DNA of 27,610 bases, from the IMG/VR virus record IMGVR_UViG_2529292919_000027. The stretch is one strand, 5' to 3'. A model generated the notes under the pieces. The model was not told where the DNA came from. It was given only the letters and a program-made list of their open reading frames with translations, and made no database searches. The position numbers were made by a program, and so were the translations under genes. Each line of letters starts with the position of its first letter. The first letter of the stretch is position 1. Shown here in pieces: positions 5,778 to 24,166 of this stretch. Origin of the DNA: a virus (lineage: Duplodnaviria; Heunggongvirae; Uroviricota; Caudoviricetes).

Positions 5778-5842
5778 AATAAGTCCTCACTATATAAAGA
5801 TATTCAGTGATGAGATAAATAATCAGTTAATTAAGAACGATA

Positions 5843-6205: not shown

Positions 6206-6547
6206 TTTGCTGCTCCTCATCATATCGACCCTGCAAGGTCGGTTAGTTTCTCCACAAAACAGAGAAGAACACCTGCGGTGGCAGCCGCCCGGATGGATTG
6301 GGTTATGAGCCCGTCGTCCGGTGATGTTCTTCTCTGTTTTGTAAAAAGAGCGGTACCAGCCGGAAGCAAGTGTACAAACTGGTACCGCCAAAGCAGTGGC
6401 TGTTGTGGTGACCGGTGCTGATCTCCGGCTTGCGGTTATTTCAGACTCTCACGGGCGTTTAATTGCCCCGCCGAACAGCTCTTTTCCGCAATAGCTGCAA
6501 TGTCTTTCGCGCATCAGCCTGCGCATTCACCACAACTCTAAAAACAA

Positions 6548-6600
6548 ATGTAGGATATCCAACATGTGAGTGTCAAGAGTTTATGTTGGTTATCCTACAT
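6548..6600 (-). promoter_or_regulatory. OL-like operator pair with embedded leftward promoter (PL-like)
   Basis: Two copies of an 18-bp palindrome (atgtaggatatccaacat / atgttggttatcctacat) flanking a minus-strand TTGACA. Confidence 0.5.
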
Positions 6601-6613
6601 AAAAAGATAGGCT

Positions 6614-6640
6614 CATAAAAAAACCGGGGATACCCCGGTT
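6614..6640 (-). terminator. intrinsic terminator downstream of cI
   Basis: Hairpin ccgggg ata ccccgg with 9-nt A-run on + strand (U-run on minus) immediately after cI stop. Confidence 0.6.
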
Positions 6641-6662
6641 TTGCGATAGTGAGGAAGATGTG

Positions 6663-7316
6663 TCAAAAATCCATTATTACTTGTTTGACAAGACCAACTA
6701 TTCTGCAGTTCTCACCGCATTCAATAGTTTTATAGTTAGGATTTAGTGGGACGAGATACCTGTTCGGCCAGTCCTCAACAAATTTTTTGAGTGTCGCTTC
6801 TTGCCCACCATTGATATGGGCAACAACGATTTTTCCGTTAATACACTCTGTATCAATAATATCTGGCTCTACGATAACGATAGAACCTTCTGGTATCGAT
6901 GGTGAGCCGAGGGGATTGGTCATTGAATCACCACGGACCCGTAGTGCAAATGCCATTTCTGATACAAGGGCGGTAGTATAAACCCACTCTTCAGCATCTT
7001 CTTTCCTGACACCAGGCTCCGTCATTGTCCATGAACCCGCCTGAACCCACGAGATTAGGGGGACTTTTTTAACTGCGAATATTTCAGGTTTTAGATTTAT
7101 CTTTGGTTCAGGCGAGCCTTTTCCGCTAACAAGCCACAGAGGATCGCATTTAAGTGCGTTGGCTAGGGCTTGAAGGTTGGCTCCATTTGGTTGGTAGTCG
7201 TCCTTTTCCCATCCAGTAACCGTGACACGGTTCACACCAGTCAAATCAGCCAGTGCTTGTTGTGTCAGGTTCAGTTCTTTTCGCCTTTGGCGAATACGAT
7301 CACTCATGTTCATCAT
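6663..7316 (-). CDS. cI: CI-like repressor (HTH_XRE + S24 LexA-like peptidase domain)
   Basis: N-terminal HTH (LNLTQQALADLTGVNRVTVTGWE), C-terminal GDSM serine and downstream Lys motifs; divergent from cro. Confidence 0.85.
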   Translation of the reverse strand: MMNMSDRIRQRRKELNLTQQALADLTGVNRVTVTGWEKDDYQPNGANLQALANALKCDPLWLVSGKGSPEPKINLKPEIFAVKKVPLISWVQAGSWTMTEPGVRKEDAEEWVYTTALVSEMAFALRVRGDSMTNPLGSPSIPEGSIVIVEPDIIDTECINGKIVVAHINGGQEATLKKFVEDWPNRYLVPLNPNYKTIECGENCRIVGLVKQVIMDF

Positions 7317-7380
7317 GTAGGCAATCCTACCACATGCCCATGTAGGATTCTTGACATTGGCATGTTGGATATCCTACATT
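7315..7380. promoter_or_regulatory. OR-like operator cluster with PR (rightward) and probable PRM
   Basis: Three copies of the same palindrome family as OL; + strand TTGACA at about 7351 with operator overlapping the -10. Confidence 0.55.
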
Positions 7381-7411
7381 TCTGCTTAACGTAATTTAAC
7401 GGGAGACAGAA

Positions 7412-7609
7412 ATGCGGAAATCCGACGTGATTAATTATTTCGGCGGAGTTTGTAAAACCGCCGAAGCCCTAGGTATTAAGCATCCGTCTGTTTCAGAGTG
7501 GCCTGAGATTATTCCTGAAGGCCGAGCGTACCAGTTAGAAAAAATTACTAACGGGAAACTGAAAGTTGACGTGTCTTTATATCAAAAGACTAACAGTGCT
7601 GCGGCATAA
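7412..7609 (+). CDS. cro: Cro-like repressor
   Basis: 65-aa ORF divergent from cI, GGGAG RBS, YdaS/Cro-like HTH sequence. Confidence 0.7.
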   Translation: MRKSDVINYFGGVCKTAEALGIKHPSVSEWPEIIPEGRAYQLEKITNGKLKVDVSLYQKTNSAAA

Positions 7610-7636
7610 AAACACCACAGAAATGAGGAATTAACC

Positions 7637-8221
7637 GTGGGTAAAGAACCTGAATGGAAAGTTGATAAACAACCAGCATGGCTGGTGGCAGCAATACGAA
7701 GAACGATTGCTGATTTACCTCATGGCTATGAGGAAGCAGCAGAAATTCTTGGTTTGTATAAATCTGATGATATCACCCCAGCAAAAGATCAATTGCATAA
7801 CAGACTGCGTAGCGGTGGGGATCAAATTTTTCCACTTGAGTGGGCCATGGTTTTACAGGATGCCAGTGGTACCAGGCATGTAACAGATGCAATAGCCCGT
7901 CGTAGTAATGGGGTGTTTGTGCCGCTGGTGGTCATTGATGACATTGACAATGGTGACATTAATCAGCGGCTGATGGAGTCAATAGAATGGATTGGCAAGC
8001 ATTCCCAGTACTTACGCAAGGCAACTGCTGATGGAGTTATTGACCAGGCTGAGCGTGAGCAAATCGAAGAGAACAGCTACCAAGTAATGGCGAAGTGGCA
8101 GGAGCATTTAACACTGTTATTTCGTGTTTTTTGTGCGCCGGAAAAGAGTAACGCCCGCGAGTGTGCAGCTCCGGGCGTCGTGGCGTCGATTGCTTCTGGT
8201 TGTGGAGAAACTAACGCATGA
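7637..8221 (+). CDS. CII-like phage regulatory protein (CP76 family-like)
   Basis: GTG start after cro; 194 aa; position and size match CII/CP76-type regulators; family assignment from memory. Confidence 0.45.
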   Translation: MGKEPEWKVDKQPAWLVAAIRRTIADLPHGYEEAAEILGLYKSDDITPAKDQLHNRLRSGGDQIFPLEWAMVLQDASGTRHVTDAIARRSNGVFVPLVVIDDIDNGDINQRLMESIEWIGKHSQYLRKATADGVIDQAEREQIEENSYQVMAKWQEHLTLLFRVFCAPEKSNARECAAPGVVASIASGCGETNA

Positions 8222-9378
8222 ATAGTTTAACGGCAAATAACCGTTTGTCGCAACAGCTGGTGGTCAGCGTCGCTGAACACCTGTTGTTACGGCATGAATG
8301 CAGATTACCAAATCACCTGGCTGTAAGTAACCACAGAGAACTTTACCTGACTGTGGGGGGCGAGTTGTGCAGGAACTTAACCGCTGGTTTCGTGACGGAA
8401 GAGGGCTTTATGTCCATGTTATTCGTTGGGAGCCAGAAACACAGCGCGTTATCTATCTTCGCAAAGACTACCCGCATGAGTGCTTTAGTCCTTTGTGGAA
8501 ATTCAGGCGTGATTTTGTTGAGTGTGAAGGACCACCAGCATATTGATTCTGCAATTCCGGGACGTTACACTGCTCAGGCACCTTATAAAGCGGGTGCCGG
8601 GATTGGCGTCCTGAAATTGTCAACGGCGATGTATGACGCGCCAGCGTCTTTTTTATCGTCCGCATTTGCTCACATCCAGATTATGGTGGGCTGGGCGGGG
8701 GCACCGAAAGGTGCGCCGGTCTCCGTTGACGCCGGTTACGCCAACCCCGTCCAGTTCACCACCAGTGAAATTGGCGTTTCCGGTGGTGGAAGTTTTTCAC
8801 TGTCAACGGAGGCTGCCATCATGGCTACGATCCCAGCCCTCACTCAACCTGAAATCACCATTGACAACGGCCAGGCCGTTACCACTTCTTTGGCTGTTGC
8901 CAACTTCTTCTCCAAGCGTCACGACGATGTGCTGAAAAAGATCCGCACTCTGGATTGTTCCCCAGAGTTTTGTGCCCGCAATTTTGCGGAGACATCGATT
9001 TCGGTAAATCAACCGAACGGTGGTACACGCAAGCTCCCTTGCTATCAAATCACACGAGACGGTTTTGCGTTTCTTGCTATGGGTTTCACGGGTAAACGTG
9101 CTGCCCGGTTCAAAGAGGCATACATAAATGCCTTTAACCAGATGGAGAAACAGCTTTCAAAGCCCGCTGTACCGAGCGACGTTGCACATAACGCCAGCGT
9201 TCTCTGTTCCTACATTTCATCAATTCATCAGGTCTGGCTGCAGCAGCTTTATCCTATGTTGGCAAAAGCCGAATCTCCGCTGGCTGTTAGCTTATATGAC
9301 TATATTAATGATGCTTCGGCGCTGGCCAGTCTCATAAATTTGTCGCTGAACCCTTCAGAGGTAAGGGGGCGCAAATGA
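8218..9378 (+). CDS. Rha-family regulatory protein with about 200-aa N-terminal extension
   Basis: Rha-type motif block (NGQAVTTSLAVANFFSKRHDDVLKKIR...FKEAYINAFNQME) begins at internal ATG 8821 (GGAGG RBS); frame open from ATG 8218 which overlaps upstream stop. Confidence 0.55.
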   Translation: MNSLTANNRLSQQLVVSVAEHLLLRHECRLPNHLAVSNHRELYLTVGGELCRNLTAGFVTEEGFMSMLFVGSQKHSALSIFAKTTRMSALVLCGNSGVILLSVKDHQHIDSAIPGRYTAQAPYKAGAGIGVLKLSTAMYDAPASFLSSAFAHIQIMVGWAGAPKGAPVSVDAGYANPVQFTTSEIGVSGGGSFSLSTEAAIMATIPALTQPEITIDNGQAVTTSLAVANFFSKRHDDVLKKIRTLDCSPEFCARNFAETSISVNQPNGGTRKLPCYQITRDGFAFLAMGFTGKRAARFKEAYINAFNQMEKQLSKPAVPSDVAHNASVLCSYISSIHQVWLQQLYPMLAKAESPLAVSLYDYINDASALASLINLSLNPSEVRGRK

Positions 9379-9599
9379 TCCGGAATATTTTCAAACGGTT
9401 TACCAATCATACTTTCCGTTGTCCTCGTCCGGGTCAGTGGTACACCACGCCTGCTGGGCATGTTCTACGTGTTAGCCTGGTTGACCGTGAATGTCAGAAG
9501 GTGGTTTGTGAACCGCTGGGCCGTAATTACCGCGTCAGTATGCCGCTTATAGCCTTTTGCTCCGGAAAAATGTTTAAGCGTCTGGGAGGTGTGGCGTGA
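9375..9599 (+). CDS. hypothetical small phage protein
   Basis: 74-aa ORF with ATGA overlap to upstream gene. Confidence 0.4.
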   Translation: MIRNIFKRFTNHTFRCPRPGQWYTTPAGHVLRVSLVDRECQKVVCEPLGRNYRVSMPLIAFCSGKMFKRLGGVA

Positions 9600-9895
9600 A
9601 CTGTTTTCAGTTTGTGTGCGGATGTGCTTTCGATAACCCGATTCAGCGCCTAATTATGTTGCGTGTTTTGATGTCGGGTTCTTCAGACGGTGAAGGCGAG
9701 AGAGTTATTGATCATCAGGTGCTTGCTGATTTCTGCTGTTGTTCTAAGCAAGCGATATTCAGGGAAACCCTGGCACTGGAAAGAGCTGGTTATCTTCATA
9801 TCCGAAAAATTGCAACGCTTACTATTGATGCAAAAGCCAGACTACAACCTGCGCGTGGCTACACAATTCTCATGCTGCGGAAGGAGGTTGTATGA
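9596..9895 (+). CDS. hypothetical protein, possible winged-helix DNA-binding
   Basis: 99-aa ORF, GTG start overlapping upstream stop, coupled to replication gene. Confidence 0.4.
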   Translation: MNCFQFVCGCAFDNPIQRLIMLRVLMSGSSDGEGERVIDHQVLADFCCCSKQAIFRETLALERAGYLHIRKIATLTIDAKARLQPARGYTILMLRKEVV

Positions 9896-10875
9896 GCCGT
9901 TACGCCCCCACACCGGAAGTTATGGCTATTGGTCAAATTAATATTTCCGGCAATGTTACACCTGCGACCTGGTGGAAATATATTCGACTACCCAGTGGGC
10001 GTCCGGATGCGACGGCTATCGCTCTGCTTTCAGAGATCGTTTACTGGTACCGCCCGACAGAGGTCAGGGATGAGCACACCGGAGCGTTGCTGGGATATCG
10101 CAAGCGTTTTCAGGGCGACAAACTGCAAAGAAGCTACCAGGCGTTTGCTGAGCAGTTTGGTTTCGGGAAAAGGGAAACCGCAGATGCGCTGAAGCGTCTG
10201 CGCGATGCAGGGTTTATTACTCTGGATTTACGCACGGTGGAAATGCTCGATGGGGTGAAATGCAGCAATATTTTGTTTGTCGGGATCAACCCACAGGCAA
10301 TTGCGGCCATCACCACACCTTCTTCTGTTTCGCCAGAAAGTAACAGCAATAATGCAATCAGCGATACAGCTATTACGTTAAAACGGAACACCCCCCGACG
10401 TCATAACGGAACAGGGGATACGCCGAATGTTGATACAAATACAGAGATTACTACAGAGATTACAACGGAGACTAAAAACACTATTGGCGCATCCGCTGAC
10501 GCGTCTGCACCAGCGCGTTCTGCCAGACAGGAATATTCACCGGAATTTGAACAGGCCTGGCAGGAATATCCCAAACGTGCTGGTGGTAATTCAAAATCCG
10601 CCGCTTTTAAAGCCTGGAAAGCCCGAATCAGGGAAGGTGTGACACCCGAAACCATGCTCGACGGTGTGAAACGCTATGCCGCCTGGGTGCGTGTCTCTGG
10701 AAATACCGGTACCCAGTTCGTGAAGCAGGCGTCGACGTTCTTTGGTCCGGATCGTCATTTCGAAGAATCCTGGGAAGTTCCTGCGGTATCTGCAGCCAGA
10801 CGCGAGGACCCGTACTTCAAAGCCAGTTACGACAACGTGGACTACAGCCAGATCCCGGAAGGATTCAGGGGGTGA
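9892..10875 (+). CDS. replication initiation/replisome organiser protein (Phg_2220_C-type C-terminus)
   Basis: C-terminal EFEQAWQEYPKRAGGNSKSAAFKAWKARI... matches the conserved phage replication C-terminus; internal tandem repeat in linker. Confidence 0.65.
   Translation: MSRYAPTPEVMAIGQINISGNVTPATWWKYIRLPSGRPDATAIALLSEIVYWYRPTEVRDEHTGALLGYRKRFQGDKLQRSYQAFAEQFGFGKRETADALKRLRDAGFITLDLRTVEMLDGVKCSNILFVGINPQAIAAITTPSSVSPESNSNNAISDTAITLKRNTPRRHNGTGDTPNVDTNTEITTEITTETKNTIGASADASAPARSARQEYSPEFEQAWQEYPKRAGGNSKSAAFKAWKARIREGVTPETMLDGVKRYAAWVRVSGNTGTQFVKQASTFFGPDRHFEESWEVPAVSAARREDPYFKASYDNVDYSQIPEGFRG
10441..10476. repeat. three tandem 12-bp repeats inside the replication gene (candidate ori iterons)
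   Basis: acagagattact / acagagattaca / acggagactaaa, encoding TEITTEITTETK in the inter-domain linker. Confidence 0.4.
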
Positions 10876-13162: not shown

Positions 13163-14158
13163 GTGACCGTGAGAGCACTACTGACCCCTGAAATTGCCCC
13201 GCGTATGGGGATCGTATTGTTCAGGCCAGGTTCAGAGCTGATGCCCCTGTTTATGCAGGGGCGTGTCCTGCTGGAGCCAGAGCCGGAACGTTATTCATCT
13301 TTCGCCAGTGGTGCCGTTCCGGCGGCATCACAACCGCTGGCGGATGATCCTGCCGTTCGGACCGTGTTCCGCAATGAGGCAGTGATCCGTCGTGCTGGTG
13401 GCGTGGAATGTCTTGAAAGCTGGTTACTTCGTGAAAAAGGTTGCCAGTGGCCTCATTCCGACTGGCACAGCGAGAACATGACCACAATGCGACACACGCC
13501 GGGCGCAATCCGTCTGTGCTGGCACTGCGATAACCAGCTGCGCGATCAGTTCACGGAACGGCTGGAATCAATGGCAACGGATAACTGTACCCGCTGGGTG
13601 TTGTCTGTTGTGCGTCGGGATCTCGGTTTTGATGACAGTCACGTTGTGACAATGCCGGAACTGTGCTGGTGGCTGATTCGTAATGACCTGGCGGATGCCT
13701 TACCGGAAAGTGCAGCCCGTAAGGCACTGAGATTACCGAAGCCTGTTGTGCCGTCTGTCACCCGGGAAAGTGACCTTGTGCCTTCGGTTCCTGCCACCAG
13801 CATCATCCAGGATAAAGCGAAAAAGGTGCTGGCGCTGAAAGTGGATCCGGAGTCGCCGGAGTCTTTTATGTTACGCCCAAAACGTCGCCGCTGGGTTAAT
13901 GAAAAGTACACGCGCTGGGTTAAGACACAGCCGTGTGCATGTTGTGGAAAGCCCGCTGATGATCCCCACCACCTGATAGGCCACGGTCAGTGTGGAATGG
14001 GTACAAAAGCGCATGACCTTTTTGTGTTGCCTTTGTGCAGAAAGCATCACGACGAGCTGCATGCGGATACCGTGGCATTTGAAGAGAAGTATGGCTCTCA
14101 GCTGGAGCTGATATTTCGTTTTATCGATCGTGCGCTGGCAATTGGCGTACTGGCGTAA
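13163..14158 (+). CDS. DUF968 domain protein (YdfU-like)
   Basis: C-terminal CACCGKPADDPHHL...PLCRKHHDELH motif; GTG start. Confidence 0.55.
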   Translation: MTVRALLTPEIAPRMGIVLFRPGSELMPLFMQGRVLLEPEPERYSSFASGAVPAASQPLADDPAVRTVFRNEAVIRRAGGVECLESWLLREKGCQWPHSDWHSENMTTMRHTPGAIRLCWHCDNQLRDQFTERLESMATDNCTRWVLSVVRRDLGFDDSHVVTMPELCWWLIRNDLADALPESAARKALRLPKPVVPSVTRESDLVPSVPATSIIQDKAKKVLALKVDPESPESFMLRPKRRRWVNEKYTRWVKTQPCACCGKPADDPHHLIGHGQCGMGTKAHDLFVLPLCRKHHDELHADTVAFEEKYGSQLELIFRFIDRALAIGVLA

Positions 14159-14171
14159 GTGGAGAACGAGC

Positions 14172-14924
14172 ATGAACCTTGAAGCCTTACCGAAATATTA
14201 CTCCCCGAAATCTCCAAAACTGAGCGATGACGCACCGGCGACAGGCTCTGGTGGTTTAACAATTACGGATGTGATGGCTGCGCAGGGGATGGTGCAGTCA
14301 AAAGCACCGCTTGGGTTTGCTTTATTCCTGGCAAAAGTTGGTGTTCAGGATCCTCAGTTTGCGATTGAAGGTCTGCTCAATTACGCGATGGCACTGGATA
14401 ACCCGACATTGAATAAATTGAGTGAAGAAACCCGGCTACAGATCATTCCTTACCTTGTGAATTTTGCCTTTGCTGATTATTCCAGGTCTGCGGCAAGTAA
14501 GGCTCGCTGTGAGCATTGTGCTGGTACTGGATTTCATAATGTATTGCGCGAGGTGGTGAAACACTCCAGAAGCGGGGAATCTGTTATTAAGGAAGAGTGG
14601 GTGAAGGAACTATGTCAGCATTGTCATGGTAAGGGAGAAGTCAGCACAGCATGCAGAGGGTGCAAGGGTAAAGGTATTGTCCTGGATGAAAAAAGAACCC
14701 GGCTTCATGGCACGCCTGTTTATAAGGTTTGTGGGCGTTGCAATGGAAACCGGTTTAGCCGTTTACCAACCACACTGGCGCGGCTTCATGTCCAGAAGCT
14801 GGTACCAGACCTGACGGATTATCAGTGGTACAAAGGATATGCAGATGTCATTGATAAACTGGTTACAAAGTGCTGGCAGGAAGAAGCATATGCAGAGATA
14901 CAATTGAGAAAGGTGACAAGATAA
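14172..14924 (+). CDS. antitermination protein Q-like (long Q family)
   Basis: Multiple CxxC zinc motifs (CEHCAGTG, CQHCHGKG, CRGCKGKG, CGRCNGNR); last nin-region gene before terminators and late genes. Confidence 0.6.
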   Translation: MNLEALPKYYSPKSPKLSDDAPATGSGGLTITDVMAAQGMVQSKAPLGFALFLAKVGVQDPQFAIEGLLNYAMALDNPTLNKLSEETRLQIIPYLVNFAFADYSRSAASKARCEHCAGTGFHNVLREVVKHSRSGESVIKEEWVKELCQHCHGKGEVSTACRGCKGKGIVLDEKRTRLHGTPVYKVCGRCNGNRFSRLPTTLARLHVQKLVPDLTDYQWYKGYADVIDKLVTKCWQEEAYAEIQLRKVTR

Positions 14925-15029: not shown

Positions 15030-15058
15030 GAACCCGCCGATGCGCGGGTTTTTTTGTA
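15030..15058 (+). terminator. intrinsic terminator (tR'-like) downstream of Q
   Basis: cccgc cgatgc gcggg hairpin followed by T8. Confidence 0.6.
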
Positions 15059-15234
15059 CCCAGAATCCTGTGAGCTATACGGAAAGTACACAGAAAGGAA
15101 GGTGCGACCACAATTAATAACAAAATCTTAAAAATTGCACATGGCACTATTAGTTTTCTAAATATTGTGTATTTTTTGTATTGCAGGATGACCCTGTAAC
15201 GAAGTTTGCGTAACAGCATTTTGCTCTACGAGTT

Positions 15235-15266
15235 TGCCAGCCTCCCCCAGTGGCTGGCTTTTTTAT
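15235..15266 (+). terminator. second intrinsic terminator downstream of Q
   Basis: gccagcc ... ggctggc stem followed by T6. Confidence 0.55.
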
Positions 15267-15386
15267 GTCTGTAGCGTCAAAGCAGCAATGTCGCTGGGGC
15301 GTCGTGCAATTGGCGTTGAGCTGGAGACTGAACGTTTTGAGCAGACGGTCAGGGAAGTTCAGGATTTAGTCAGTCAGAACGGATGA
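15267..15386 (+). pseudogene. 3' remnant of a DNA methyltransferase gene
   Basis: Frame reads ...KAAMSLGRRAIGVELETERFEQTVREVQDLV, resembling MTase C-terminal motif; no 5' part or start present. Confidence 0.3.
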
Positions 15387-15426
15387 TATTGCAGAATTAG
15401 TTACGTACCGTTATTATCCTGCGCCC

Positions 15427-15502
15427 GGCCCTTTAGCTCAGTGGTGAGAGCGAGCGACTCATAATCGCCAGGTCGCTGGTTCAAATCCAGCAAGGGCCAC
15501 CA
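15427..15502 (+). tRNA. tRNA-Ile2 (anticodon CAU; Met-type anticodon, ileX/ileZ-like)
   Basis: Cloverleaf by eye: acceptor ggccctt/aagggcc, D-arm gctcagtggtgagagc, anticodon loop ctCATaa, T-arm ggttcaaatcc, CCA end; near-identical to E. coli ileX as recalled. Confidence 0.8.
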
Positions 15503-15509
15503 TCACATA

Positions 15510-15586
15510 CCGCCATTAGCTCATCGGGATAGAGCGTCAGCCTTCGAAGCTGGCTGTGCGGGGTTCAAGTCCCCGATGGCGGTCCA
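15510..15586 (+). tRNA. tRNA-Arg (anticodon UCG)
   Basis: Acceptor ccgccat/atggcgg, anticodon loop ctTCGaa, T-arm ggttcaagtcc, CCA end. Confidence 0.75.
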
Positions 15587-15599
15587 TTATCAGCATCAT

Positions 15600-15676
15600 G
15601 CGTTGTTAGCTCAGTCGGACAGAGCAATTGCCTTCTAAGCAATCGGTCACTGGTTCGAATCCAGTACAACGCGCCA
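15600..15676 (+). tRNA. tRNA-Arg (anticodon UCU)
   Basis: Acceptor gcgttgt/acaacgc, anticodon loop ctTCTaa, T-arm ggttcgaatcc, CCA end. Confidence 0.75.
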
Positions 15677-15687
15677 TATTTATTTAC

Positions 15688-15716
15688 TTGGCTCGCTTTT
15701 GCGGGCCTTTTTTTGT
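15688..15716 (+). terminator. intrinsic terminator after tRNA cluster
   Basis: ggctcgc ttt gcgggcc followed by T7. Confidence 0.5.
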
Positions 15717-15766
15717 ATCTGCGTTACACCATTAACTAATAAATCGAGTGCTTATCAGGAGGCTAT

Positions 15767-15991
15767 GTGAAAAAACTGATGGTGACGATTGGTCCGTTCG
15801 AAACAGAAGTTAGTTTTCGTGTTGTTCAGGGGGAGAGTGTACTTGTTGAAGATGTATTTCATGGAAAATCAACAGGTCCTTATGTAAAAGAATATCTTAT
15901 CGACGCCACGGATGAAAATATTGAGGTGGTGTACGATTCCGTCAATCACCCTGATTTGATCATTAAGGCAAAATTGAAGCCACTTTATTGA
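15767..15991 (+). CDS. small acidic hypothetical protein (74 aa), cargo
   Basis: GTG start 4 nt after AGGAGG; no recognisable family. Confidence 0.5.
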   Translation: MKKLMVTIGPFETEVSFRVVQGESVLVEDVFHGKSTGPYVKEYLIDATDENIEVVYDSVNHPDLIIKAKLKPLY

Positions 15992-16043
15992 TCTGACCGG
16001 GAGCAATCATAAAATATCTCTGGGTACCCACAAGGAGATAAAT

Positions 16044-16253
16044 ATGTTTGTTTCTGAAGTGTTAATGGAAGATAAGGACAACAAAGGATGGGTTAAAGGT
16101 TGGGCTGTGGTAAGAAGCTCGCCCTGGCATCTTGTTGGGGTTTTTGCGACAGAGGAAGACGCAGAAACGGAAGCAAGAAAGATGGGAGATAAGTACGAGG
16201 TTCACTATGGCTCGCATCGAACAGGAAGTGATGATTTTGTCTGGGGGGAGTAA
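16044..16253 (+). CDS. small acidic Trp-rich hypothetical protein (69 aa), cargo
   Basis: ATG 8 nt after AAGGAG; co-transcribed with upstream small ORF. Confidence 0.5.
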   Translation: MFVSEVLMEDKDNKGWVKGWAVVRSSPWHLVGVFATEEDAETEARKMGDKYEVHYGSHRTGSDDFVWGE

Positions 16254-16285
16254 CAGTCGTTTAACCCCAGAATAATCCCGTAACT

Positions 16286-16312
16286 GAGGTCGCTATTGGC
16301 GGCCTTTTTTGT
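16286..16312 (+). terminator. intrinsic terminator after the two small cargo genes
   Basis: ggtcgc tatt gcggcc (one G-U) followed by T6; downstream motif ttttttgtatc.gcg shared with the tRNA terminator. Confidence 0.4.
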
Positions 16313-16442
16313 ATCCGCGCCACGCCCGGCGCATATCAACCACAGAGCCTTTCGGGGGTGAGCTTACGGAGTGGTCAGTGTGACTTTCTCTGTGGGCAGA
16401 TCGCTCCCGGGCGTTGGCTCACCCACCCAAAGGAACGTCACG

Positions 16443-16874
16443 ATGTTTGGTATTTTTGGTAAAAAAGCCCGCCGAGCGGCAGTGGAAATTAAAAAGTTTG
16501 AGAAACGTGATCTGGCACAGGCGGTTATTAATGCTGCCTATCTGGTGGCCTATGCAGATGGTGAATGTGAGGCTTCAGAGAAAGCGAAGATCGAGCAGAT
16601 CTTGCGTAACCAGCCTGCGTTGTCCGCGTTTACGTCAGAAATTAATGCGATTAGCGCAACCATTATCGGTCAGCTGGATACGAACTTTAAAATTGGTCGT
16701 CGAGCGGCATTGCGTGAAATTGAAGATGTGAAACACGATACGCGTGAAGCGGAAGATGTGCTGGATGTGGCGGTGGCCATTGCGGAGGCAGACGGCGAAA
16801 TTGAGCCGGAAGAGCGCAAGGTGCTGGAAGAGATTGCCGGTGTTCTGGGTCTTCGTCTGGAGAATCACCAGTGA
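16443..16874 (+). CDS. TerB-family (tellurite-resistance TerB-like) protein
   Basis: Two TerB-type repeats (AAYLVAYADGECEASEKAKIEQIL and VLDVAVAIAEADGEIEPEERKVLEEIAGVLG) parallel to E. coli TerB; ATG with AAGGA RBS. Confidence 0.6.
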   Translation: MFGIFGKKARRAAVEIKKFEKRDLAQAVINAAYLVAYADGECEASEKAKIEQILRNQPALSAFTSEINAISATIIGQLDTNFKIGRRAALREIEDVKHDTREAEDVLDVAVAIAEADGEIEPEERKVLEEIAGVLGLRLENHQ

Positions 16875-17047
16875 CGGTAAAACTGCGCCTGGCTGTGGCT
16901 GCACTCCTGCTGTTTCTGGTGGTGATGGTGGATTTCACCAGCAGAATCATGTCGGTGCTGGCGGATGGGGTGCTGGTCTGCGGCATTGTGGTATTGCTGT
17001 GGCCGGTGATAAAAAGAAACAGCCTGCATAATGCTTGATTTTTTTAT
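16871..17047 (+). CDS. small membrane protein (58 aa, two predicted TM segments) coupled to TerB-like gene
   Basis: GTG overlapping TerB stop (GTGA); two hydrophobic stretches; short, so uncertain. Confidence 0.4.
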
Positions 17048-17352
17048 TTGCTGTTTATTAAAAATACTACTGCATGGTGAATCCCCCTGTGCGGAGGGGC
17101 GATCAGCAACCAGGTATATGGGATAATCGCGGATTCAGGTGCTGATACTGAATTCACCGGGAGGCACCCGGCACCATGCTTTGCCGCAAAAGTGTTGTTT
17201 CTGTTTTTCTCAAACTATCATCGTTATCCCTTTATTTCCGGCTGCGCATGGCGTGGCCTTTTTTTTACGACCAGCCACTGGCAGATGGCCATCCTGTAAT
17301 TTGATTCCGGTTCCGGCTTTTTAACTCTGTTCCTGTACACGGGAGAAATTCG

Positions 17353-19206
17353 ATGTCGATTAAACATTATGATGTTGTCAGGGCGGCGTCGCCGTCAGAC
17401 CTTGCGGAAAAGCTGACACACAAACTGAAAGAGGGCTGGCAGCCGTTTGGTAGTCCGGTGGCCATAACCCCTTATACCCTGATGCAGGCGATTACAGCAG
17501 AAGGTGATGTGGTGGTCAGTGGTGCAACTGAGCCGGATTGGTACTACGTCATCGTACTGGCCGGGCAGTCCAATGCCATGGCTTACGGTGAAGGGCTTCC
17601 GCTGCCGGATTCATACGATGCTCCGGATCCGCGCATTAAACAGCTGGCGCGCCGCAGTACAGTTACGCCGGGTGGGGCTGCATGCAGATATAACGATATT
17701 ATTCCGGCCGACCACTGCCTGCATGATGTGCAGGATATGAGTACGCTGAATCATCCGAAGGCAGACCTGAGCAAAGGGCAGTACGGCTGTGTCGGCCAGG
17801 GCTTACATATTGCCAAAAAACTGCTCCCGTATATCCCGAATAACGCGGGGATCCTGCTGGTACCATGCTGTCGTGGTGGTTCGGCATTCACCCAGGGCGC
17901 GGAGGGGACATTCAGTGCGGACACGGGGGCCAGCCAGGATTCGGCACGCTGGGGTGTGGGTAAACCGTTATATCAGGACCTGATTGCGCGCACTAAAGCT
18001 GCATTACAGAAGAACCCGAAAAATGTGTTGCTGGCGGTGTGCTGGATGCAGGGAGAGTTTGACATGAGCGCCGCCACCCACGCACAGCAACCTGCGCTGT
18101 TTACAGCCATGCTGACACAGTTTCGTGCTGACCTCTCCGTGTTTAACGCGCAGTGCCATGGTGGCAGTGCTGCAGATGTGCCGTGGATTTGTGGTGACAC
18201 GACGTATTACTGGAAAAATACATACGCTACCCAGTACGACACCGTGTACGGCGGGTATAAAAACAGGGAGAGTGAGGGCGTTTATTTTGTGCCCTTCATG
18301 ACAGACGGTAACGGCGTCAATACCGCCACTAACGCACCGGCAGAAGATCCGGATATTCCGGCATCAGGATATTACGGTGCGGCATCGAGAACGAATGGAA
18401 ACCAGGTATCATCAAACCGCCCGACACATTTCAGTTCATGGGCGCGCAGGAGCATTATTCCGGATCGTATGGCAACCGCTATTCTGAACGCAGCCGGGCG
18501 CACCTCAGCTTTCATCAGTGGTAAGGCACCGGAAATCAAACCCTCGCCCGGCGGCAACACGCCATCGGGGCCGTCTGAAGATGCATCCGTACGCACAATC
18601 TCCCTGTTGCCGACAGCCGGAGAGGCTGCTGCGCAGGGCTGGACCATTAAGGACGGCGGAATTCAGTTGTCGGGTGGTGTATTTAAGATCGCCAAGCAGA
18701 GCAATAAAACCTGGTCCCTGATGCATCCGGTGGATGACGCAGTCTCCCTGCTGACACGGGGTGGCAGACTGAGCTGTAAGTTTCGACTGTCAGGCGCACT
18801 GACCAACAACCAGTTCGGCCTGGGAATTTATCTGTATACCGATGTAGCGTTACCTGACGTCGTGGCGATGACCGGGACTGGTAACCCGTTCCTGATGTCG
18901 TTCTTCACCCAGACCACAGACGGCAAACTGAATCTGATGCATCACAAGAAAGCAGGAAACACAAAGTTGGGCGAGTTCGGGAATTACAGTAATGACTGGC
19001 AGACGCTGGAACTGGTGTTCACCGCCGGCAGTGCCACGGTTACTCCGAAACTGAATGGAGTGGCTGGCCCGGCATTCCAGGTCATAAAAGACAGTCTGAC
19101 ACTGGGGCTGAATGCGCTGACGCTGACGGATATTACCAAAAATGCAGCGTATGGCGTTGAGATAGAAAGTCTGGTGCTGGAGATAAATGCACCGGCATCA
19201 TCATAA
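17353..19206 (+). CDS. nanS: prophage sialate O-acetylesterase NanS-p-like (DUF1737 + SGNH/SASA esterase)
   Basis: N-terminal DUF1737-like segment and VIVLAGQSNAMAYG esterase motif; position matches nanS-p of Stx phages. Confidence 0.8.
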   Translation: MSIKHYDVVRAASPSDLAEKLTHKLKEGWQPFGSPVAITPYTLMQAITAEGDVVVSGATEPDWYYVIVLAGQSNAMAYGEGLPLPDSYDAPDPRIKQLARRSTVTPGGAACRYNDIIPADHCLHDVQDMSTLNHPKADLSKGQYGCVGQGLHIAKKLLPYIPNNAGILLVPCCRGGSAFTQGAEGTFSADTGASQDSARWGVGKPLYQDLIARTKAALQKNPKNVLLAVCWMQGEFDMSAATHAQQPALFTAMLTQFRADLSVFNAQCHGGSAADVPWICGDTTYYWKNTYATQYDTVYGGYKNRESEGVYFVPFMTDGNGVNTATNAPAEDPDIPASGYYGAASRTNGNQVSSNRPTHFSSWARRSIIPDRMATAILNAAGRTSAFISGKAPEIKPSPGGNTPSGPSEDASVRTISLLPTAGEAAAQGWTIKDGGIQLSGGVFKIAKQSNKTWSLMHPVDDAVSLLTRGGRLSCKFRLSGALTNNQFGLGIYLYTDVALPDVVAMTGTGNPFLMSFFTQTTDGKLNLMHHKKAGNTKLGEFGNYSNDWQTLELVFTAGSATVTPKLNGVAGPAFQVIKDSLTLGLNALTLTDITKNAAYGVEIESLVLEINAPASS

Positions 19207-19288
19207 AAAGTGAGCCAGCCAAATGGAAGGTATCGTTAAACTCACCGGTAGTGTCAGTGGGTCGTCTGAGATGCCTGCATGAGTTATC

Positions 19289-19323
19289 AGAGCCATCAGT
19301 ACTTAACTGGTGGCTTTTTTTAT
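19289..19323 (+). terminator. intrinsic terminator between nanS-p and holin
   Basis: agccatcag ... ctggtggct stem followed by T8. Confidence 0.5.
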
Positions 19324-19356
19324 TGCTGTCAGCTTCCGGATAACGGGAGACGGGGT

Positions 19357-19572
19357 ATGTACCAGATGGAAAAAATCACAACAGGTGTGTCATACACCAC
19401 GTCAGCGGTGGGAACGGGCTACTGGTTCCTGCAGTTGCTGGACAGGGTTTCCCCGTCTCAGTGGGCGGCAATAGGCGTGCTGGGGAGTCTGCTGTTTGGG
19501 CTGCTGACATATCTGACTAACCTGTATTTCAAAATCAGAGAGGACCGTCGTAAGGCGGCGCGGGGGGAGTAA
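19357..19572 (+). CDS. class II holin, S21-like pinholin with dual start
   Basis: 71 aa with MYQMEK dual-start, sequence very close to phage 21 S (…[45 protein letters not shown]). Confidence 0.85.
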
Positions 19573-19668: not shown

Positions 19669-20010
19669 ATGTCCATCATTTTTAATGGACACTATCGTAT
19701 GAAACACCGGACCTGGATCACTGAAGCTTTACGTCTTCACTTTGAAGAACATTTACCCCGGGTTGTGGCCGGGCGTCGCCTGGGTGTACCAAAATCAACA
19801 GTTTGTAGTATGTTCGTGCGCTTTCGGAGAGCTGGCCTTTCGTGGCCTTTGCCCGCAGGCATGTCGGAGCAGGAACTTGATGCCTGCCTTTACGGACAAT
19901 TTTCCACGGTACCAGTCGTACGTCCTGAAAGCACCGTTATATCCGAAGCCCCCGTGGTAAAAAACGTCCCCGGCGGCCCAACTTCCCTTATGAGTTTAAA
20001 ATCGCCTTAG
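19669..20010 (+). CDS. IS-encoded HTH ORF upstream of tnpA (possibly the frameshifted N-terminal part of tnpA)
   Basis: 113-aa ORF with HTH-like RRLGVPKSTV; ends where the tnpA frame opens. Confidence 0.4.
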   Translation: MSIIFNGHYRMKHRTWITEALRLHFEEHLPRVVAGRRLGVPKSTVCSMFVRFRRAGLSWPLPAGMSEQELDACLYGQFSTVPVVRPESTVISEAPVVKNVPGGPTSLMSLKSP

Positions 20011-20345
20011 TGGAGCAGTCACTGCAGCCCGGAGCCTGTGTGGCGCAGATCGCCCGGGAAAACGGAATCAACGATAACCTGCTCTTCAACTGGCGCCATC
20101 AATACCGGAAAGGTGGCCTGCTGCCTTCCGGAAAAAATATGCCGGCACTGCTTCCCGTGACGTTAACGCCGGAGCCGGATAATAAAATCCCGGCCCCCGC
20201 ACAGGAACCAGAGCAGATAAATACACCGTCCGACAGTCTGTGTTGTGAGCTGGTTCTGCCGGCCGGAACTCTCAGGCTTAAAGGTAAACTGACGCCGGCG
20301 TTATTACAGACACTTATCCGCGAAATAAAAGGGAGCAGCCACTGA
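20010..20345 (+). CDS. tnpA: IS66-family accessory protein TnpA (orfA), start uncertain
   Basis: PRRPNFPYEFK...VAQIARENGINDNLLFNWRHQYRKG HTH motif; frame open from 19929 without ATG; ORF track start is GTG at 20010. Confidence 0.6.
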   Translation: MEQSLQPGACVAQIARENGINDNLLFNWRHQYRKGGLLPSGKNMPALLPVTLTPEPDNKIPAPAQEPEQINTPSDSLCCELVLPAGTLRLKGKLTPALLQTLIREIKGSSH

Positions 20346-20692
20346 TGATATCTCTCCCTGCAGGTTCGCGTATCTGGCTGGTTGCAGGTATCACCGATAT
20401 GCGAAATGGCTTTAACGGCCTGGCATCAAAAGTTCAGAACGTCCTGAAGGATGACCCGTTCTCCGGACACCTGTTCATCTTCCGCGGACGCCGGGGTGAC
20501 CAGATAAAAGTGTTGTGGGCTGACAGTGACGGACTGTGCCTCTTCACCAAACGCCTGGAGCGGGGCCGCTTCGTCTGGCCAGTCACCCGTGACGGCAAGG
20601 TGCACCTTACTCCGGCTCAGTTATCCATGCTTCTTGAAGGTATCAACTGGAAGCACCCGAAACGAACGGAACGCGCTGGAATCCGCATATAA
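20345..20692 (+). CDS. tnpB: IS66-family TnpB (Orf2)
   Basis: Recalled IS66 Orf2 sequence (MISLPAGSRIWLVAGITDMR...HLFIFRGRRGD.IKVLWAD.DGLCLFTKRLE). Confidence 0.85.
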   Translation: MISLPAGSRIWLVAGITDMRNGFNGLASKVQNVLKDDPFSGHLFIFRGRRGDQIKVLWADSDGLCLFTKRLERGRFVWPVTRDGKVHLTPAQLSMLLEGINWKHPKRTERAGIRI

Positions 20693-20711
20693 CCCGTTGT
20701 AAAGTGAGGAT

Positions 20712-22283
20712 ATGGACACCTCACTTGCTCATGAGAACGCCCGCCTGCGGGCACTGTTGCAGACGCAACAGGACACCATCCGCCAGATGGCTGAATACAA
20801 CCGCCTGCTCTCACAGCGGGTGGCGGCTTATGCTTCCGAAATCAACCGGCTGAAGGCGCTGGTTGCGAAACTGCAACGTATGCAGTTCGGTAAAAGCTCA
20901 GAAAAACTTCGTGCAAAAACCGAACGGCAGATACAGGAAGCACAGGAGCGAATCAGCGCACTTCAGGAAGAAATGGCGGAAACGCTGGGTGAGCAATATG
21001 ACCCGGTACTGCCATCCGCCCTGCGCCAGTCTTCAGCCCGTAAACCGTTACCGGCCTCACTTCCCCGTGAAACCCGGGTTATCCGGCCGGAAGAGGAATG
21101 CTGTCCTGCCTGTGGTGGTGAACTCAGTTCTCTGGGATGTGATGTGTCAGAGCAACTGGAGCTTATCAGCAGCGCCTTTAAGGTTATCGAAACACAACGT
21201 CCGAAACAGGCCTGTTGCCGGTGCGACCATATCGTGCAGGCACCAGTACCTTCAAAACCCATTGCACGCAGTTATGCCGGAGCGGGGCTTCTGGCCCATG
21301 TTGTCACCGGGAAATATGCAGACCATCTGCCGTTATACCGCCAGTCAGAAATATACCGTCGTCAGGGAGTGGAGCTGAGCCGTGCCACACTGGGGCGCTG
21401 GACAGGTGCTGTTGCTGAACTGCTGGAGCCGCTGTATGACGTCCTGCGCCAGTATGTGCTGATGCCCGGTAAAGTCCATGCTGATGATATCCCCGTCCCG
21501 GTCCAGGAGCCGGGCAGCGGTAAAACCCGGACAGCCCGGCTGTGGGTCTACGTCCGTGATGACCGTAACGCCGGTTCACAGATGCCCCCGGCGGTCTGGT
21601 TCGCGTACAGTCCGGACCGGAAAGGTATCCATCCACAAAATCACCTGGCCGGTTACAGCGGTGTGCTTCAGGCCGATGCTTACGGTGGTTACCGGGCGTT
21701 ATACGAATCCGGCAGAATAACGGAAGCCGCGTGTATGGCTCATGCCCGGAGAAAAATCCACGATGTGCATGCAAGAGCGCCCACCTACATCACCACGGAA
21801 GCCCTGCAGCGTATCGGTGAACTGTATGCCATCGAGGCAGAGGTCCGGGGCTGTTCAGCAGAACAGCGTCTGGCGGCAAGAAAAGCCAGAGCCGCGCCAC
21901 TGATGCAGTCACTGTATGACTGGATACAGCAACAGATGAAAACACTGTCGCGTCACTCAGATACGGCAAAAGCGTTCGCATACCTGCTGAAACAGTGGGA
22001 TGCACTGAACGTGTACTGCAGTAATGGCTGGGTGGAAATCGACAACAACATCGCAGAGAACGCCTTACGGGGAGTGGCCGTAGGCCGGAAAAACTGGATG
22101 TTCGCGGGTTCCGACAGCGGTGGTGAACATGCGGCGGTGTTGTACTCGCTGATCGGCACATGCCGTCTGAACAATGTGGAGCCAGAAAAGTGGCTGCGTT
22201 ACGTCATTGAACATATCCAGGACTGGCCGGCAAACCGGGTACGCGATCTGTTGCCCTGGAAAGTTGATCTGAGCTCTCAGTAA
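20712..22283 (+). CDS. tnpC: IS66-family transposase TnpC
   Basis: N-terminal leucine zipper, CPACGGEL zinc motif, DDE region; 523 aa. Confidence 0.85.
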
Positions 22284-22677: not shown

Positions 22678-23211
22678 ATGAACGCAAAAATCAGATACGG
22701 CCTGTCGGCTGCCGTTCTGGCGCTGATTGGTGCAGGGGCGTCTGCGCCTGAAATCCTCGACCAGTTTCTTGACGAAAAAGAAGGTAACCACACCACGGCA
22801 TACCGTGATGGTGCGGGTATCTGGACCATCTGCCGCGGTGCCATCCTGGTGGATGGTAAACCTGTCGTCCCGGGCATGAAGTTGTCGAAGGAAAAATGCG
22901 ACCAGGTTAACGCCATTGAACGTGATAAGGCGCTGGCATGGGTGGAGAAAAACATCAGAGTGCCACTGACCGAACCCCAGAAAGCGGGGATTGCGTCATT
23001 CTGTCCGTACAACATTGGTCCTGGTAAGTGTTTCCCGTCGACGTTTTACAGACGAATTAATGCAGGTGATCGCAGGGGAGCGTGTGAGGCGATTCGCTGG
23101 TGGATTAAGGACGGTGGCAGAGACTGCCGTATTCGTTCAAACAACTGTTACGGTCAGGTATCCCGTCGTGACCAGGAGAGCGCGCTGGCGTGCTGGGGTA
23201 TCGACAGATAA
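22678..23211 (+). CDS. SAR endolysin (T4-lysozyme-like, GH24)
   Basis: N-terminal signal-anchor-release segment (GLSAAVLALIGAGASAP), catalytic region resembling R21/P1 Lyz. Confidence 0.8.
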   Translation: MNAKIRYGLSAAVLALIGAGASAPEILDQFLDEKEGNHTTAYRDGAGIWTICRGAILVDGKPVVPGMKLSKEKCDQVNAIERDKALAWVEKNIRVPLTEPQKAGIASFCPYNIGPGKCFPSTFYRRINAGDRRGACEAIRWWIKDGGRDCRIRSNNCYGQVSRRDQESALACWGIDR

Positions 23212-23564: not shown

Positions 23565-23696
23565 ATGTCAGACAAACTCATAACGCTGGCGAAGATCCTC
23601 TGTGTAATTGTCGGCATTTCATTTTCACTAATGCTGGTTGCTCTTTTTCTTTCCATGGCCTGGATGATGTTGTCTTCGTCGGGGTTGCTGGGGTGA
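23565..23696 (+). CDS. small hydrophobic membrane peptide (43 aa)
   Basis: ATG after AGGGAGG; single TM; stop overlaps Rz start region. Confidence 0.4.
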
Positions 23697-23707
23697 ACAT
23701 AAACCGA

Positions 23708-24166
23708 ATGCTTTCCGCGTTTATCGTTATTCTGCTGGTGGCCTGTGGTGCGCTGTGGATGGCAACAGACCATTACCGTGATAACGCGATTACCTACAAA
23801 GCGCAGCGCGATAACAAAGCCAGTGAACTGAAGCTGGCGAACGCAACCATTACTGATATGCAGGTGCGCCAGCGCGATGTTGCTGCGCTCGATGCAAAAT
23901 ACTCGAGGGAATTATCCGATGCGAGAGCTGAAAATGAAACTCTGCGCGCTGATGTTGCCGCTGGTCGTAAGCGCCTGCGGATCAACGCCACCTGTCCAGG
24001 CTCCGTGCGTGAAGCCCCCACCACCTCCGGCGTGGATAATGCAACCGGCCCCCAACTGGCAGACACCGTTACACGGGATTATTTCACCCTCAGAGAGCGG
24101 CTGATGACGATGCACAAGCAACTGGAAGGGGCACAGGACTATATCCGCACTCAGTGCCTGAAATAA
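23708..24166 (+). CDS. Rz: Rz i-spanin
   Basis: N-terminal [17 protein letters not shown]...DVAAGR.RL motif matching Rz; ORF track 23693..24166. Confidence 0.8.
23919..24104 (+). CDS. Rz1: Rz1 o-spanin lipoprotein (embedded in Rz, +1 frame)
   Basis: Lipobox LVVSAC and [14 protein letters not shown] proline-rich motif as in lambda Rz1. Confidence 0.75.

Follow-up and report, generated by a model that had tools for sequence, protein, structure and literature searches.

The subject of this analysis is a short cargo interval in a 27,610-nt stretch of viral DNA (IMG/VR record IMGVR_UViG_2529292919_000027, Caudoviricetes), which is called the window below and which is a lambdoid prophage. Between the late antiterminator gene Q and the sialate O-acetylesterase gene nanS-p, the window carries four small genes, orf1, orf2, tciA and tciB. 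These genes very probably represent two unrelated mobile moron modules, orf1-orf2 and tciA-tciB (tciAB), that are stacked in the Q-to-nanS hot spot; this assessment applies jointly to the division into two modules, to their family identities and to the slot. An earlier sequence-only reading had treated them as one uncharacterised four-gene cluster ending at 17047, an end that is corrected here to 17038. The features that define the two modules and their slot are as follows (positions in the window):

14130..14924, + strand: late antiterminator Q (Pfam PF03589 Antiterm, E 8.9e-53), given as context; the late transcript runs through the slot
15427..15676, + strand: tRNAs Met-CAT (annotated as ileZ), Arg-TCG (argN) and Arg-TCT (argO) (ARAGORN; Rfam tRNA), left border of the slot
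15686..15730, + strand: intrinsic terminator after argO (terminator scan: stem 15690-15707 plus T-run), first of the two direct repeat copies that enclose the cassette
15767..15991, + strand: orf1, encoding a 74-aa cytoplasmic protein, predicted six-strand beta-sandwich (phrog_2571); GTG start, AGGAGG Shine-Dalgarno motif
16044..16253, + strand: orf2, encoding a 69-aa beta-beta-alpha-beta-beta domain (phrog_4280) with the motifs SPWHLxGV and YGSHRxGSDDF
16283..16326, + strand: second copy of the terminator (terminator scan, repeat search), boundary between the orf1-orf2 cassette on its left and the tciAB module on its right
16443..16874, + strand: tciA, encoding a 143-aa TerB-domain protein (Pfam TerB, phrog_632, PDB 2JXU)
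16871..17038, + strand: tciB, encoding a 55-aa DUF3927 peptide with two transmembrane (TM) segments (Pfam DUF3927, phrog_1470)
17353..19206, + strand: nanS-p, sialate O-acetylesterase (Pfam DUF1737, SASA, DUF6645; RefSeq annotation), right border of the slot

The slot was defined by nucleotide comparison with the Shiga toxin 2a (Stx2a) phage WGPS8. The flanks at 15030-15723 and 17072-17102 are homologous in the two phages, including the tRNA region with 95% identity, and stx2AB lies in between. Since the homology ends at 15723 and resumes at 17072, after stx2B, the cargo of the window fills the exact stxAB slot. In phi296, an stx-negative phage, the slot is empty, with only about 78 bp at this place. 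The proposal that the four genes occupy the stxAB position between the tRNAs and nanS-p was thus borne out at the nucleotide level, and the exclusion of structural and lysis functions for all four proteins also held. The stxAB moron of Stx-converting phages shares with the cargo of the window the identical insertion slot, after the terminator of ileZ-argN-argO and before an STnc100-like element and nanS-p, and the same late, Q-dependent read-through transcription is expected for both. The cargo itself, however, is unrelated, and the slot of the window carries no toxin. The region from 15400 to 17400 is 100% identical to many chromosomes of Shiga toxin-producing E. coli (STEC), for example O26:H11 11368, in which RefSeq calls the products of orf1 and orf2 hypothetical, that of tciA a 'tellurite resistance TerB family protein' and that of tciB a 'DUF3927 family protein'.

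Several observations show that the slot is filled by two modules. A 45-bp segment with the argO terminator is duplicated downstream (direct repeats D1/D4, spacing 596-597), and orf1-orf2 is a 597-bp presence/absence cassette with the duplicated terminator at both ends. The terminator that had been ascribed to orf1-orf2 as their own is indeed present (hairpin and T-run at 16286-16313, 3' of orf2, in the terminator scan), but it is the second copy of the argO terminator, at a spacing of 597. In the phages Evi and JLK-2012, tciAB directly follows the tRNAs of these phages and orf1-orf2 is missing; the homology to the window resumes at 16290, within the repeated terminator. Among the 80 closest IMG/VR loci, which served as the sample for the counts of the cassette, the tRNAs and tciB, the cassette was found in 17 loci, every time with both genes, and the distance from the last tRNA to tciA was 765-767 nt with the cassette versus 168-178 nt without it. 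The tRNAs in front of the cassette are Met-Arg-Arg in some loci and Asn-Gly in others, and it also occurs with no tRNAs at all. The analysis of 5426 complete E. coli genomes, at a query coverage of at least 80%, revealed tciAB DNA in 790 genomes (about 15%) at 3987 places, with a median of 6 and a maximum of 10 per genome, the orf1-orf2 cassette in 93 genomes, and the whole 2-kb arrangement in 85. Thus, the four genes form a recombinational stack in which two known modules of hypothetical proteins are combined that occur independently of each other, as seen in Evi, JLK-2012 and the IMG/VR loci, and the notion of one cluster was abandoned. Nor is tciAB uncharacterised in the sense of lacking a name, as the pair is named and annotated (P1 tciA/tciB; phrog_632 and phrog_1470; RefSeq TerB family and DUF3927).

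The identity of the tciAB module is clear from profile searches. TciA matches Pfam PF05099 TerB (E 1.7e-16, 61 bits at a cut-off of 24.4, residues 26-138) and, over the full length, phrog_632 (E 1.2e-68), and its residues 15-137 align with residues 21-144 of KP-TerB, PDB 2JXU (E 4e-8), in agreement with the family assignment made from the sequence. Members of the TerB family contain two repeated acidic ADG-x5-E helix-hairpin motifs that form a putative metal or ligand site. In TciA these motifs read AYADGECEASE and AEADGEIEPEE, and D39, G40, E46, G118 and E124 are invariant in a five-phage alignment. The search against NCBIfam yielded only sub-threshold matches, to YmfL and to DjlA; in the latter, residues 87-139 of TciA aligned with residues 112-165 of DjlA (E 5e-7, 29.5 bits versus a cut-off of 162). 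The start codon of tciA is most likely the ATG at 16443, as in all homologues, and the frame is open back to a GTG at 16371. The stop codon of tciA overlaps the GTG start codon of tciB in the sequence GTGA (16871-16874). TciB matches Pfam PF13064 DUF3927 (E 4.3e-17, 62.3 bits at a cut-off of 25) and phrog_1470 'TciB-like' (E 4e-30, positions 1-54 of 54); DUF3927 was the only Pfam family above threshold, and no holin or pore-forming toxin family was matched. Its hydropathy profile contains two hydrophobic segments, 1-27 and 28-48, and an N-in/C-in topology is suggested by the basic residues that the peptide has at either end. The coupling and the two TM segments described previously were therefore confirmed, but the length of the peptide is 55 aa (16871-17038) instead of 58 aa. 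Taken together, TciA is a bona fide TerB-domain protein, and TciB is made by coupling to the end of tciA.

The closest named relative is found in phage P1, which also encodes a TerB protein of about 142 aa followed by a DUF3927 peptide of about 54 aa with the motif VDFTS...LxDG...WP, and in both phages the pair lies beside tRNA genes. P1 TciA is 41.5% identical to TciA of the window, and the TciB peptides are 58% identical over 31 residues. P1 also has tciC, whereas the window has none (a 31-aa open reading frame at 17031, after tciB, is unrelated), and the location is different, namely the Q-dependent late region of a lambdoid prophage versus the Pban-ban stretch of P1. With the exception of tciC, tciAB of the window is a member of the known P1-type family of phage TerB plus DUF3927. 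With the ter cluster terZABCDEF it shares the full-length domain of KP-TerB (2JXU), both ADGxxxxxE motifs being kept in TciA. In contrast to that cluster, the TerB protein of the window is phage-carried and accompanied by a two-TM peptide only. TerC, TerD, TerZ, TerA and TerE are missing from the element, TerB is the one ter-type product that the Pfam search recognised in the slot, and no other ter gene is present in the RefSeq annotation of the identical stretch from the tRNAs to nanS-p and of the surrounding prophage of O26:H11 11368. The defense systems Shango (SngA), Bunzi (BnzA) and Dionysus (DinB plus the pore-forming DinC) likewise combine TerB with membrane components. However, the window has neither the helicase/ATPase of Shango nor the TM-fused TerB of Bunzi, the SngA and BnzA models of PADLOC-DB v2 were not matched, and BnzB is absent from the annotation. 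The gene content of the window also does not fit the published description of Dionysus DinABC, which comprises a MAEBL/TM protein, a TerB-like protein and a 4-TM pore-forming toxin. Unlike these three systems, the pair is phage-encoded, including in virulent phages. DjlA, a membrane-anchored co-chaperone with an N-terminal TM segment, shares with the pair the layout of TM anchor plus TerB-like domain, but in the window the anchor and TerB reside on separate polypeptides and there is no J-domain.

The distribution of tciAB shows that the association of the two genes is very stable. In all 80 close IMG/VR loci, tciB directly follows tciA; four variant alleles were missed by tblastn and are visible in the translation. 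tciA is under strong purifying selection (median ratio of non-synonymous to synonymous substitution rates, dN/dS, of 0.064 for 34 alleles at a dS of about 0.37), and the ratio for tciB was not used because length variants make it unreliable. TerB homologues were found in 131 phage records, including Erwinia jumbo phages and the Pseudomonas phages Lana and Zuri. Ten diverse phage TerB loci were inspected, and in eight of them a coupled gene for a small membrane protein follows the TerB gene at offsets from -7 to +4 nt. A two-TM peptide of the TciB type is present in six of the ten, namely in the window, P1, FSL SP-076, ChrisDB, LIET2 and pPE4, the most divergent being that of the Erwinia jumbo phage ChrisDB. 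Among these, FSL SP-076 is a virulent N4-like Salmonella phage, and LIET2 and pPE4 infect Pantoea and Actinobacillus, respectively. In the Pseudomonas phages Lana and AF, TerB is likewise coupled, but to a partner of another kind with a single TM segment. This partner is 71-73 aa long, is encoded at 2438-2653 of the Lana locus (L097) and at 2932-3153 of the AF locus (L016) with a coupling of -3 nt, and has the C-terminal motif CxWYGYQT...VGCMV...GW; the AF gene is unannotated. In these phages the partner family is swapped and the layout of TerB plus membrane protein is retained.

The genes of this type lie beside or inside tRNA clusters in unrelated phages, that is, in lambdoid phages with two tRNA sets, in P1 and in a jumbo phage array. 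Such loci are found at 15427-15676 of the window, 1616-3276 of the P1 locus (L013), 976-4510 of the ChrisDB locus (L015) and 4756-4989 of the JLK-2012 locus (L002). In P1, genes for tRNA-Asn and tRNA-Thr lie upstream of the tci genes and the gene for tRNA-Ile lies directly downstream, and in 67 of the 80 close loci tRNAs are located within 1.5 kb upstream. Either a common hot spot of recombination or a functional connection could explain the proximity.

The position of tciAB in the window also bears on its expression. In the tciA leader (16311-16442) no consensus promoter was detected; overall, the number of sites in the promoter scan did not exceed the chance expectation, and none of them lay 5' of tciA. 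Two intrinsic terminators are present upstream of tciAB and downstream of Q. From the location behind Q and two terminators, and from the lack of a consensus promoter, we infer that tciAB is expressed in the lytic cycle by Q read-through, as is stx. In P1, according to the annotation, the tci genes lie between the C1-controlled Pban promoters and ban, and in N4-like and Lana-type phages genes of the tciAB type are found among genes for replication and nucleotide metabolism. FSL SP-058 and SP-076, which both carry homologues, have been described as virulent and devoid of lysogeny modules (PMC3728262). Because the pair is kept in obligately lytic phages, in temperate phages and in phages with plasmid prophages, it is unlikely to serve only lysogenic conversion or the protection of the lysogen.

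The mechanism that we tentatively favor, and that we regard as plausible though short of probable, is that of a membrane-anchored TerB module acting in lytic growth. According to this proposal, TciA and TciB would be made during lytic development, in the window on a Q-antiterminated late transcript that crosses the two upstream terminators. On the cytoplasmic side of the inner membrane, TciB would be the tether or partner of TciA, and the two may represent, in split form, the TM plus TerB-like layout of DjlA or of TerC/TerB. The TciA-TciB pair could then monitor or stabilise the membrane of the infected cell until programmed lysis, and the likeliest purpose would be to blunt superinfecting phages, pore-forming colicins or membrane-disrupting effectors of host abortive infection (Abi). 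TerB has been reported to be membrane-associated, and a proposed task of the TerB proteins in the Bunzi, Shango and Dionysus systems is 'membrane surveillance'. Iyer et al. proposed that phage Ter genes act against superinfecting phages (PMC7824862).

Several points weigh against this proposal. The timing of expression is deduced from gene position only, and the temporal region of tciAB varies among phages, so that a 'late' assignment is not conserved. Two of the ten diverse phage TerB genes lack a downstream membrane partner. The search of the four proteins against PADLOC, as a defense catalogue, gave no credible hit. A CRISPR interference screen of P1 found tciA, tciB and tciC dispensable for plaque formation (PMC10695390), a later paper still called the role of the P1 tci genes unclear (PMC9603915), and the literature search retrieved no experimental study of phage tciAB or DUF3927.

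The alternative that fares best, though we consider it rather unlikely, is a prophage-borne defense or Abi module that guards the lysogen, with TerB sensing the perturbation of the membrane by an incoming phage and the peptide acting as a toxic membrane effector; a candidate Abi role had also been suggested by the sequence-only reading. TerB domains are indeed part of the validated systems Shango, Bunzi and Dionysus, the last of which pairs a TerB-like protein with a TM pore-forming toxin. In addition, the plasmid ter cluster has been linked to phage inhibition and colicin resistance, the slot is a classic moron slot, and up to 10 tciAB copies are present per STEC genome. However, obligately lytic phages carry the same pair and gain nothing from the protection of a lysogen, which argues against a purely prophage-borne role. 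PADLOC returned no match to SngA, BnzA or another system (the best was PDC-S48, E 0.0056), the genes lie behind two intrinsic terminators and tciA is preceded by no consensus promoter, and the only family that TciB matches above threshold is DUF3927, not a holin or pore-forming toxin.

Unlikely, too, is a role in anti-defense, in which TciA would be a decoy or antagonist of host TerB systems (Ter, Shango, Bunzi, Dionysus) or of membrane-disrupting Abi effectors, and TciB would place it at the membrane. This would fit the full-length homology of TciA to host TerB, the strong purifying selection on tciA, and the occurrence of the pair in lytic as well as temperate phages, often in early or middle regions next to genes for nucleotide metabolism or host takeover. 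Yet no such inhibitor is reported in the papers found on TerB systems, and the non-essentiality of the P1 genes on a laboratory host is uninformative here because that host lacks such systems.

It is improbable that tciAB is an accessory for lysis timing that tunes holin triggering, for example as a buffer of the proton-motive force or as an antiholin-like factor. The pair lies directly 5' of holin genes in Evi and in the Actinobacillus phage pPE4, is located in the late, lysis-proximal region in the window, and encodes with TciB a peptide that resembles class II holins in size and two-TM topology. In P1 and in N4-like, jumbo and Pseudomonas phages, however, the pair is far from the lysis genes, TciB has no holin family match, and in lambdoid phages the proximity to lysis genes results from the general moron hot spot between Q and S, which stx uses as well. 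In view of the homology to TerB of the ter operon, the inherited names and the PHROG label 'tellurite resistance' would suggest that tciAB confers resistance to tellurite or colicins on the lysogen. Such lysogenic conversion is very unlikely, because the names were given by homology only (the wording of the P1 record is 'by homology'), the annotation of the prophage contains no other ter gene and lytic phages also carry the pair; moreover, according to work by Whelan and Taylor on R478, tellurite resistance reportedly needs several ter genes and not TerB alone.

The second module, the orf1-orf2 cassette, encodes proteins of two phage families, phrog_2571 (orf1, E 1.9e-26) and phrog_4280 (orf2, E 6e-41). 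Orf1 aligns with positions 100-171 of the 291-column PHROG profile; that it is a fragment of a longer protein was rejected, since 48 full-length homologues of 69-88 aa were found, in Escherichia, Salmonella, Citrobacter, Leclercia and Yokenella. In orf2, the motifs SPWHLxGV and YGSxRxGSDDF are invariant, and relatives are found in Xenorhabdus and Pseudomonas phages. Products gp60-gp61 of phage mEp237 are 35% and 65% identical to orf1 and orf2, respectively, and in mEp237 and in the Salmonella and Leclercia prophage copies the pair is located just after Rz and before the terminase genes. A second copy after Rz is missing in the window, where the pair is present only once, in the Q-proximal slot. 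An orf1-like gene immediately 5' of an orf2-like gene was found in seven of nine enterobacterial genome loci. Some Stx phages have orf1 without orf2, and in Pseudomonas phages orf2 is found without orf1 among tail genes; the pairing is therefore not obligatory.

Homologues of orf1 lie directly 3' of Rz in the Stx2a phage Stx2_EH1846 (3501-3725 of locus L008) and in a Salmonella prophage (6001-6225 of locus L011). In Stx2_EH1846, the start of orf1 overlaps the stop codon of Rz, and orf2 is missing at that locus. These arrangements hint that orf1 may be expressed together with the lysis genes.

The predicted model of orf1 is a six-strand beta-sandwich (predicted local distance difference test score, pLDDT, 90.2), and its structural neighbors are generic only. 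For orf2, the best AlphaFold2 model has a pLDDT of 83.8 and the other four are at about 56, so that the fold is confident in one of five models; the comparison with the PDB revealed no credible structural neighbors. Sequence searches of the PDB and scans of PADLOC and Pfam with orf1 and orf2 gave no match. The two proteins are acidic, as had been stated, but only mildly so, with an isoelectric point (pI) of 4.97 and a net charge of -4 over 74 aa for orf1, and a pI of 4.90 and a net charge of -6 over 69 aa for orf2.

An unexpected connection was found for orf2. A profile search of 1.84 billion cluster representatives yielded 289 orf2-like proteins. The conserved motifs of this family, GW.GW..., PWH and YGSxRxG(S/T)DDF over about 60 residues, are all present in orf2 of the window. 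Most of the 289 are free-standing proteins of 60-80 aa. Among the top 150, 24 proteins have a length of 146 aa or more, with the orf2-like domain mostly at the C-terminus and in a few cases at the N-terminus. The following domains were found fused N-terminally to the orf2-like domain:

TIR_2 / ThsB-type TIR (P0080, P0090)
Trypsin_2 (P0115, P0117, P0148, P0181, P0212; Collimonas L123, 4963-6162)
Mrr_cat (P0138)
RES (Methylobacter L116, 5044-6186)
Imm53 (P0208)

The fused domains align with orf2 nearly without gaps over the C-terminal 60 residues, with 37-53% identity and with shared PWH and GSxRxG(S/T)DDF motifs. The domain is outside Pfam, and the only Pfam match is a sub-threshold one to DUF7336 in 3 of 26 members. 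Four fused loci were inspected, and three of them have restriction-modification (R-M) or Abi genes as neighbors:

Rickettsiales metagenome-assembled genome (L120), 1984-10563: Trypsin_2-orf2-like gene with hsdM-hsdS on one side and, on the other, three unannotated genes and then a second DNA methylase
fused locus adjoining an AbiJ_NTD4 gene
fused locus adjoining an Eco57I-like methylase gene

The Rickettsiales arrangement looks like a defense island with several uncharacterised components. The TIR-, RES-, Mrr- and Trypsin_2-orf2-like proteins are bacterial, lie near R-M or Abi genes and belong to no named family of the libraries searched, whereas orf2 of the window is free-standing, phage-borne and usually paired with orf1.

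Single-gene defense proteins are usually built from a small tail that stays constant and an exchangeable head, here TIR, RES, Mrr or protease, and on this basis the orf2-like domain is read as the sensing or regulatory part. The C-terminal orf2-like domain would then be the sensing or regulatory module of putative single-gene defense proteins, and the free-standing phage orf2, possibly together with orf1, may bind the same partner or mimic that module and thereby modulate such systems. We regard this mechanism, sensor-module mimicry or binding of a shared partner, as possible and somewhat doubtful. Several findings count against it: the evidence from fusion context covers four loci, one of which, the Methylobacter locus, lies among housekeeping genes; the defense role of the fusion proteins is deduced from their domains and neighbors; the orf2 fold is confident in one of five models only; orf1 and orf2 do not always occur as a pair; and the fusion to Imm53 would agree equally well with a sensor and with an immunity or antitoxin-type function.

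A role of the acidic pair in conflict, which had been suggested through a resemblance to DNA mimics, is retained for orf2 on other grounds, namely the TIR, RES, Mrr and trypsin fusions, but not as DNA mimicry. That orf1 and orf2 are DNA-mimic-type anti-restriction proteins is highly improbable: the small size, the pI of about 4.9-5.0 and the moron position would be compatible with it, but the net charges are ordinary for cytoplasmic proteins, the predicted beta-sandwich and beta-beta-alpha-beta-beta folds are unlike the mimics in the PDB, and the very high negative charge density and known mimic folds of Ocr/ArdA-like proteins, like any PADLOC, Pfam or PDB sequence match, are missing in both.

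Two RNA elements accompany the tciAB module, one on each side, and a terminator precedes nanS-p:

16345..16420, + strand: long imperfect hairpin in the tciA leader (inverted repeat I7; outer 13-nt arms 16356-16368 and 16412-16424)
17046..17215, + strand: prophage small RNA (sRNA) element of the STnc100/PasD type (Rfam RF02076, 102.4 bits versus a gathering score of 47, full-length model)
17240..17267, + strand: intrinsic terminator upstream of nanS-p (terminator scan)

The leader hairpin ends just before the Shine-Dalgarno motif, has a predicted folding energy of -59 kcal/mol that is mildly better than that of shuffled sequences (z = -2.2), and is retained along with the module in Evi and JLK-2012; the Rfam scan of the leader gave no family, riboswitch or known RNA. 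The STnc100 element begins 8 nt after the stop codon of tciB, and pieces of it (17072-17102 and 17147-17178) are conserved after stx2B in WGPS8. It may be an Hfq sRNA of the PasD/STnc100 family that is derived from a 3' untranslated region or transcribed independently. According to a recent preprint, TerB is one of the genes that are conserved in the vicinity of the related sRNAs PasA and PasC.

The remaining features of the region are the following:

15234-15386, + strand: remnant of a site-specific DNA methyltransferase, C-terminal fragment only, between Q and the tRNAs
19279-19572: S21-type holin, downstream of nanS-p
19669-22283, + strand: IS66-family element (open reading frames HTH_Tnp_1, TnpB_IS66, DDE_Tnp_IS66)
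22678-23211: lysozyme gene
23693-24166: Rz

The methyltransferase remnant has the same placement in Stx phages and is a pseudogene according to RefSeq. The IS66 element separates the S21-type holin from the lysozyme gene, an insertion that probably uncouples the lysis cassette of this prophage.

Blended over the anatomy and both mechanisms, our overall explanation is about as likely to be right as wrong. What is new beyond the existing annotation is the dissection of the slot into modules, the observation that a coupled small membrane protein accompanies phage TerB in nearly all cases, in very different phages that include virulent ones, and the link of the orf2 domain to effectors; the link of orf2 to effector-fusion proteins is the sole new lead. 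A more speculative joint reading, to which we give little credence as a whole, is that free-standing orf2, perhaps with orf1, is a decoy or inhibitor of a new class of single-protein Abi systems, whose orf2-like C-terminal sensor would govern exchangeable TIR, RES, Mrr-nuclease or trypsin-like effectors, and that TciA-TciB is a membrane-anchored TerB module that resists attacks on the membrane by the host or by competitors in lytic growth. If that were true, the stx slot would hold two modules for counter-defense or competition.

tciAB is among the commonest cargo pairs of STEC prophages and resides in the same slot as the Shiga toxin genes, and, as it is also carried by virulent phages, it likely serves a general need of phages at the cell membrane. 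A phenotype of tciAB would explain a gene pair that is present in hundreds of genomes and would bear on the role of TerB in defense systems. Through its domain, the small orf2 protein is connected with proteins that contain TIR, RES, Mrr or protease domains, and it thus offers a testable entry to a possible new pair of defense and counter-defense.

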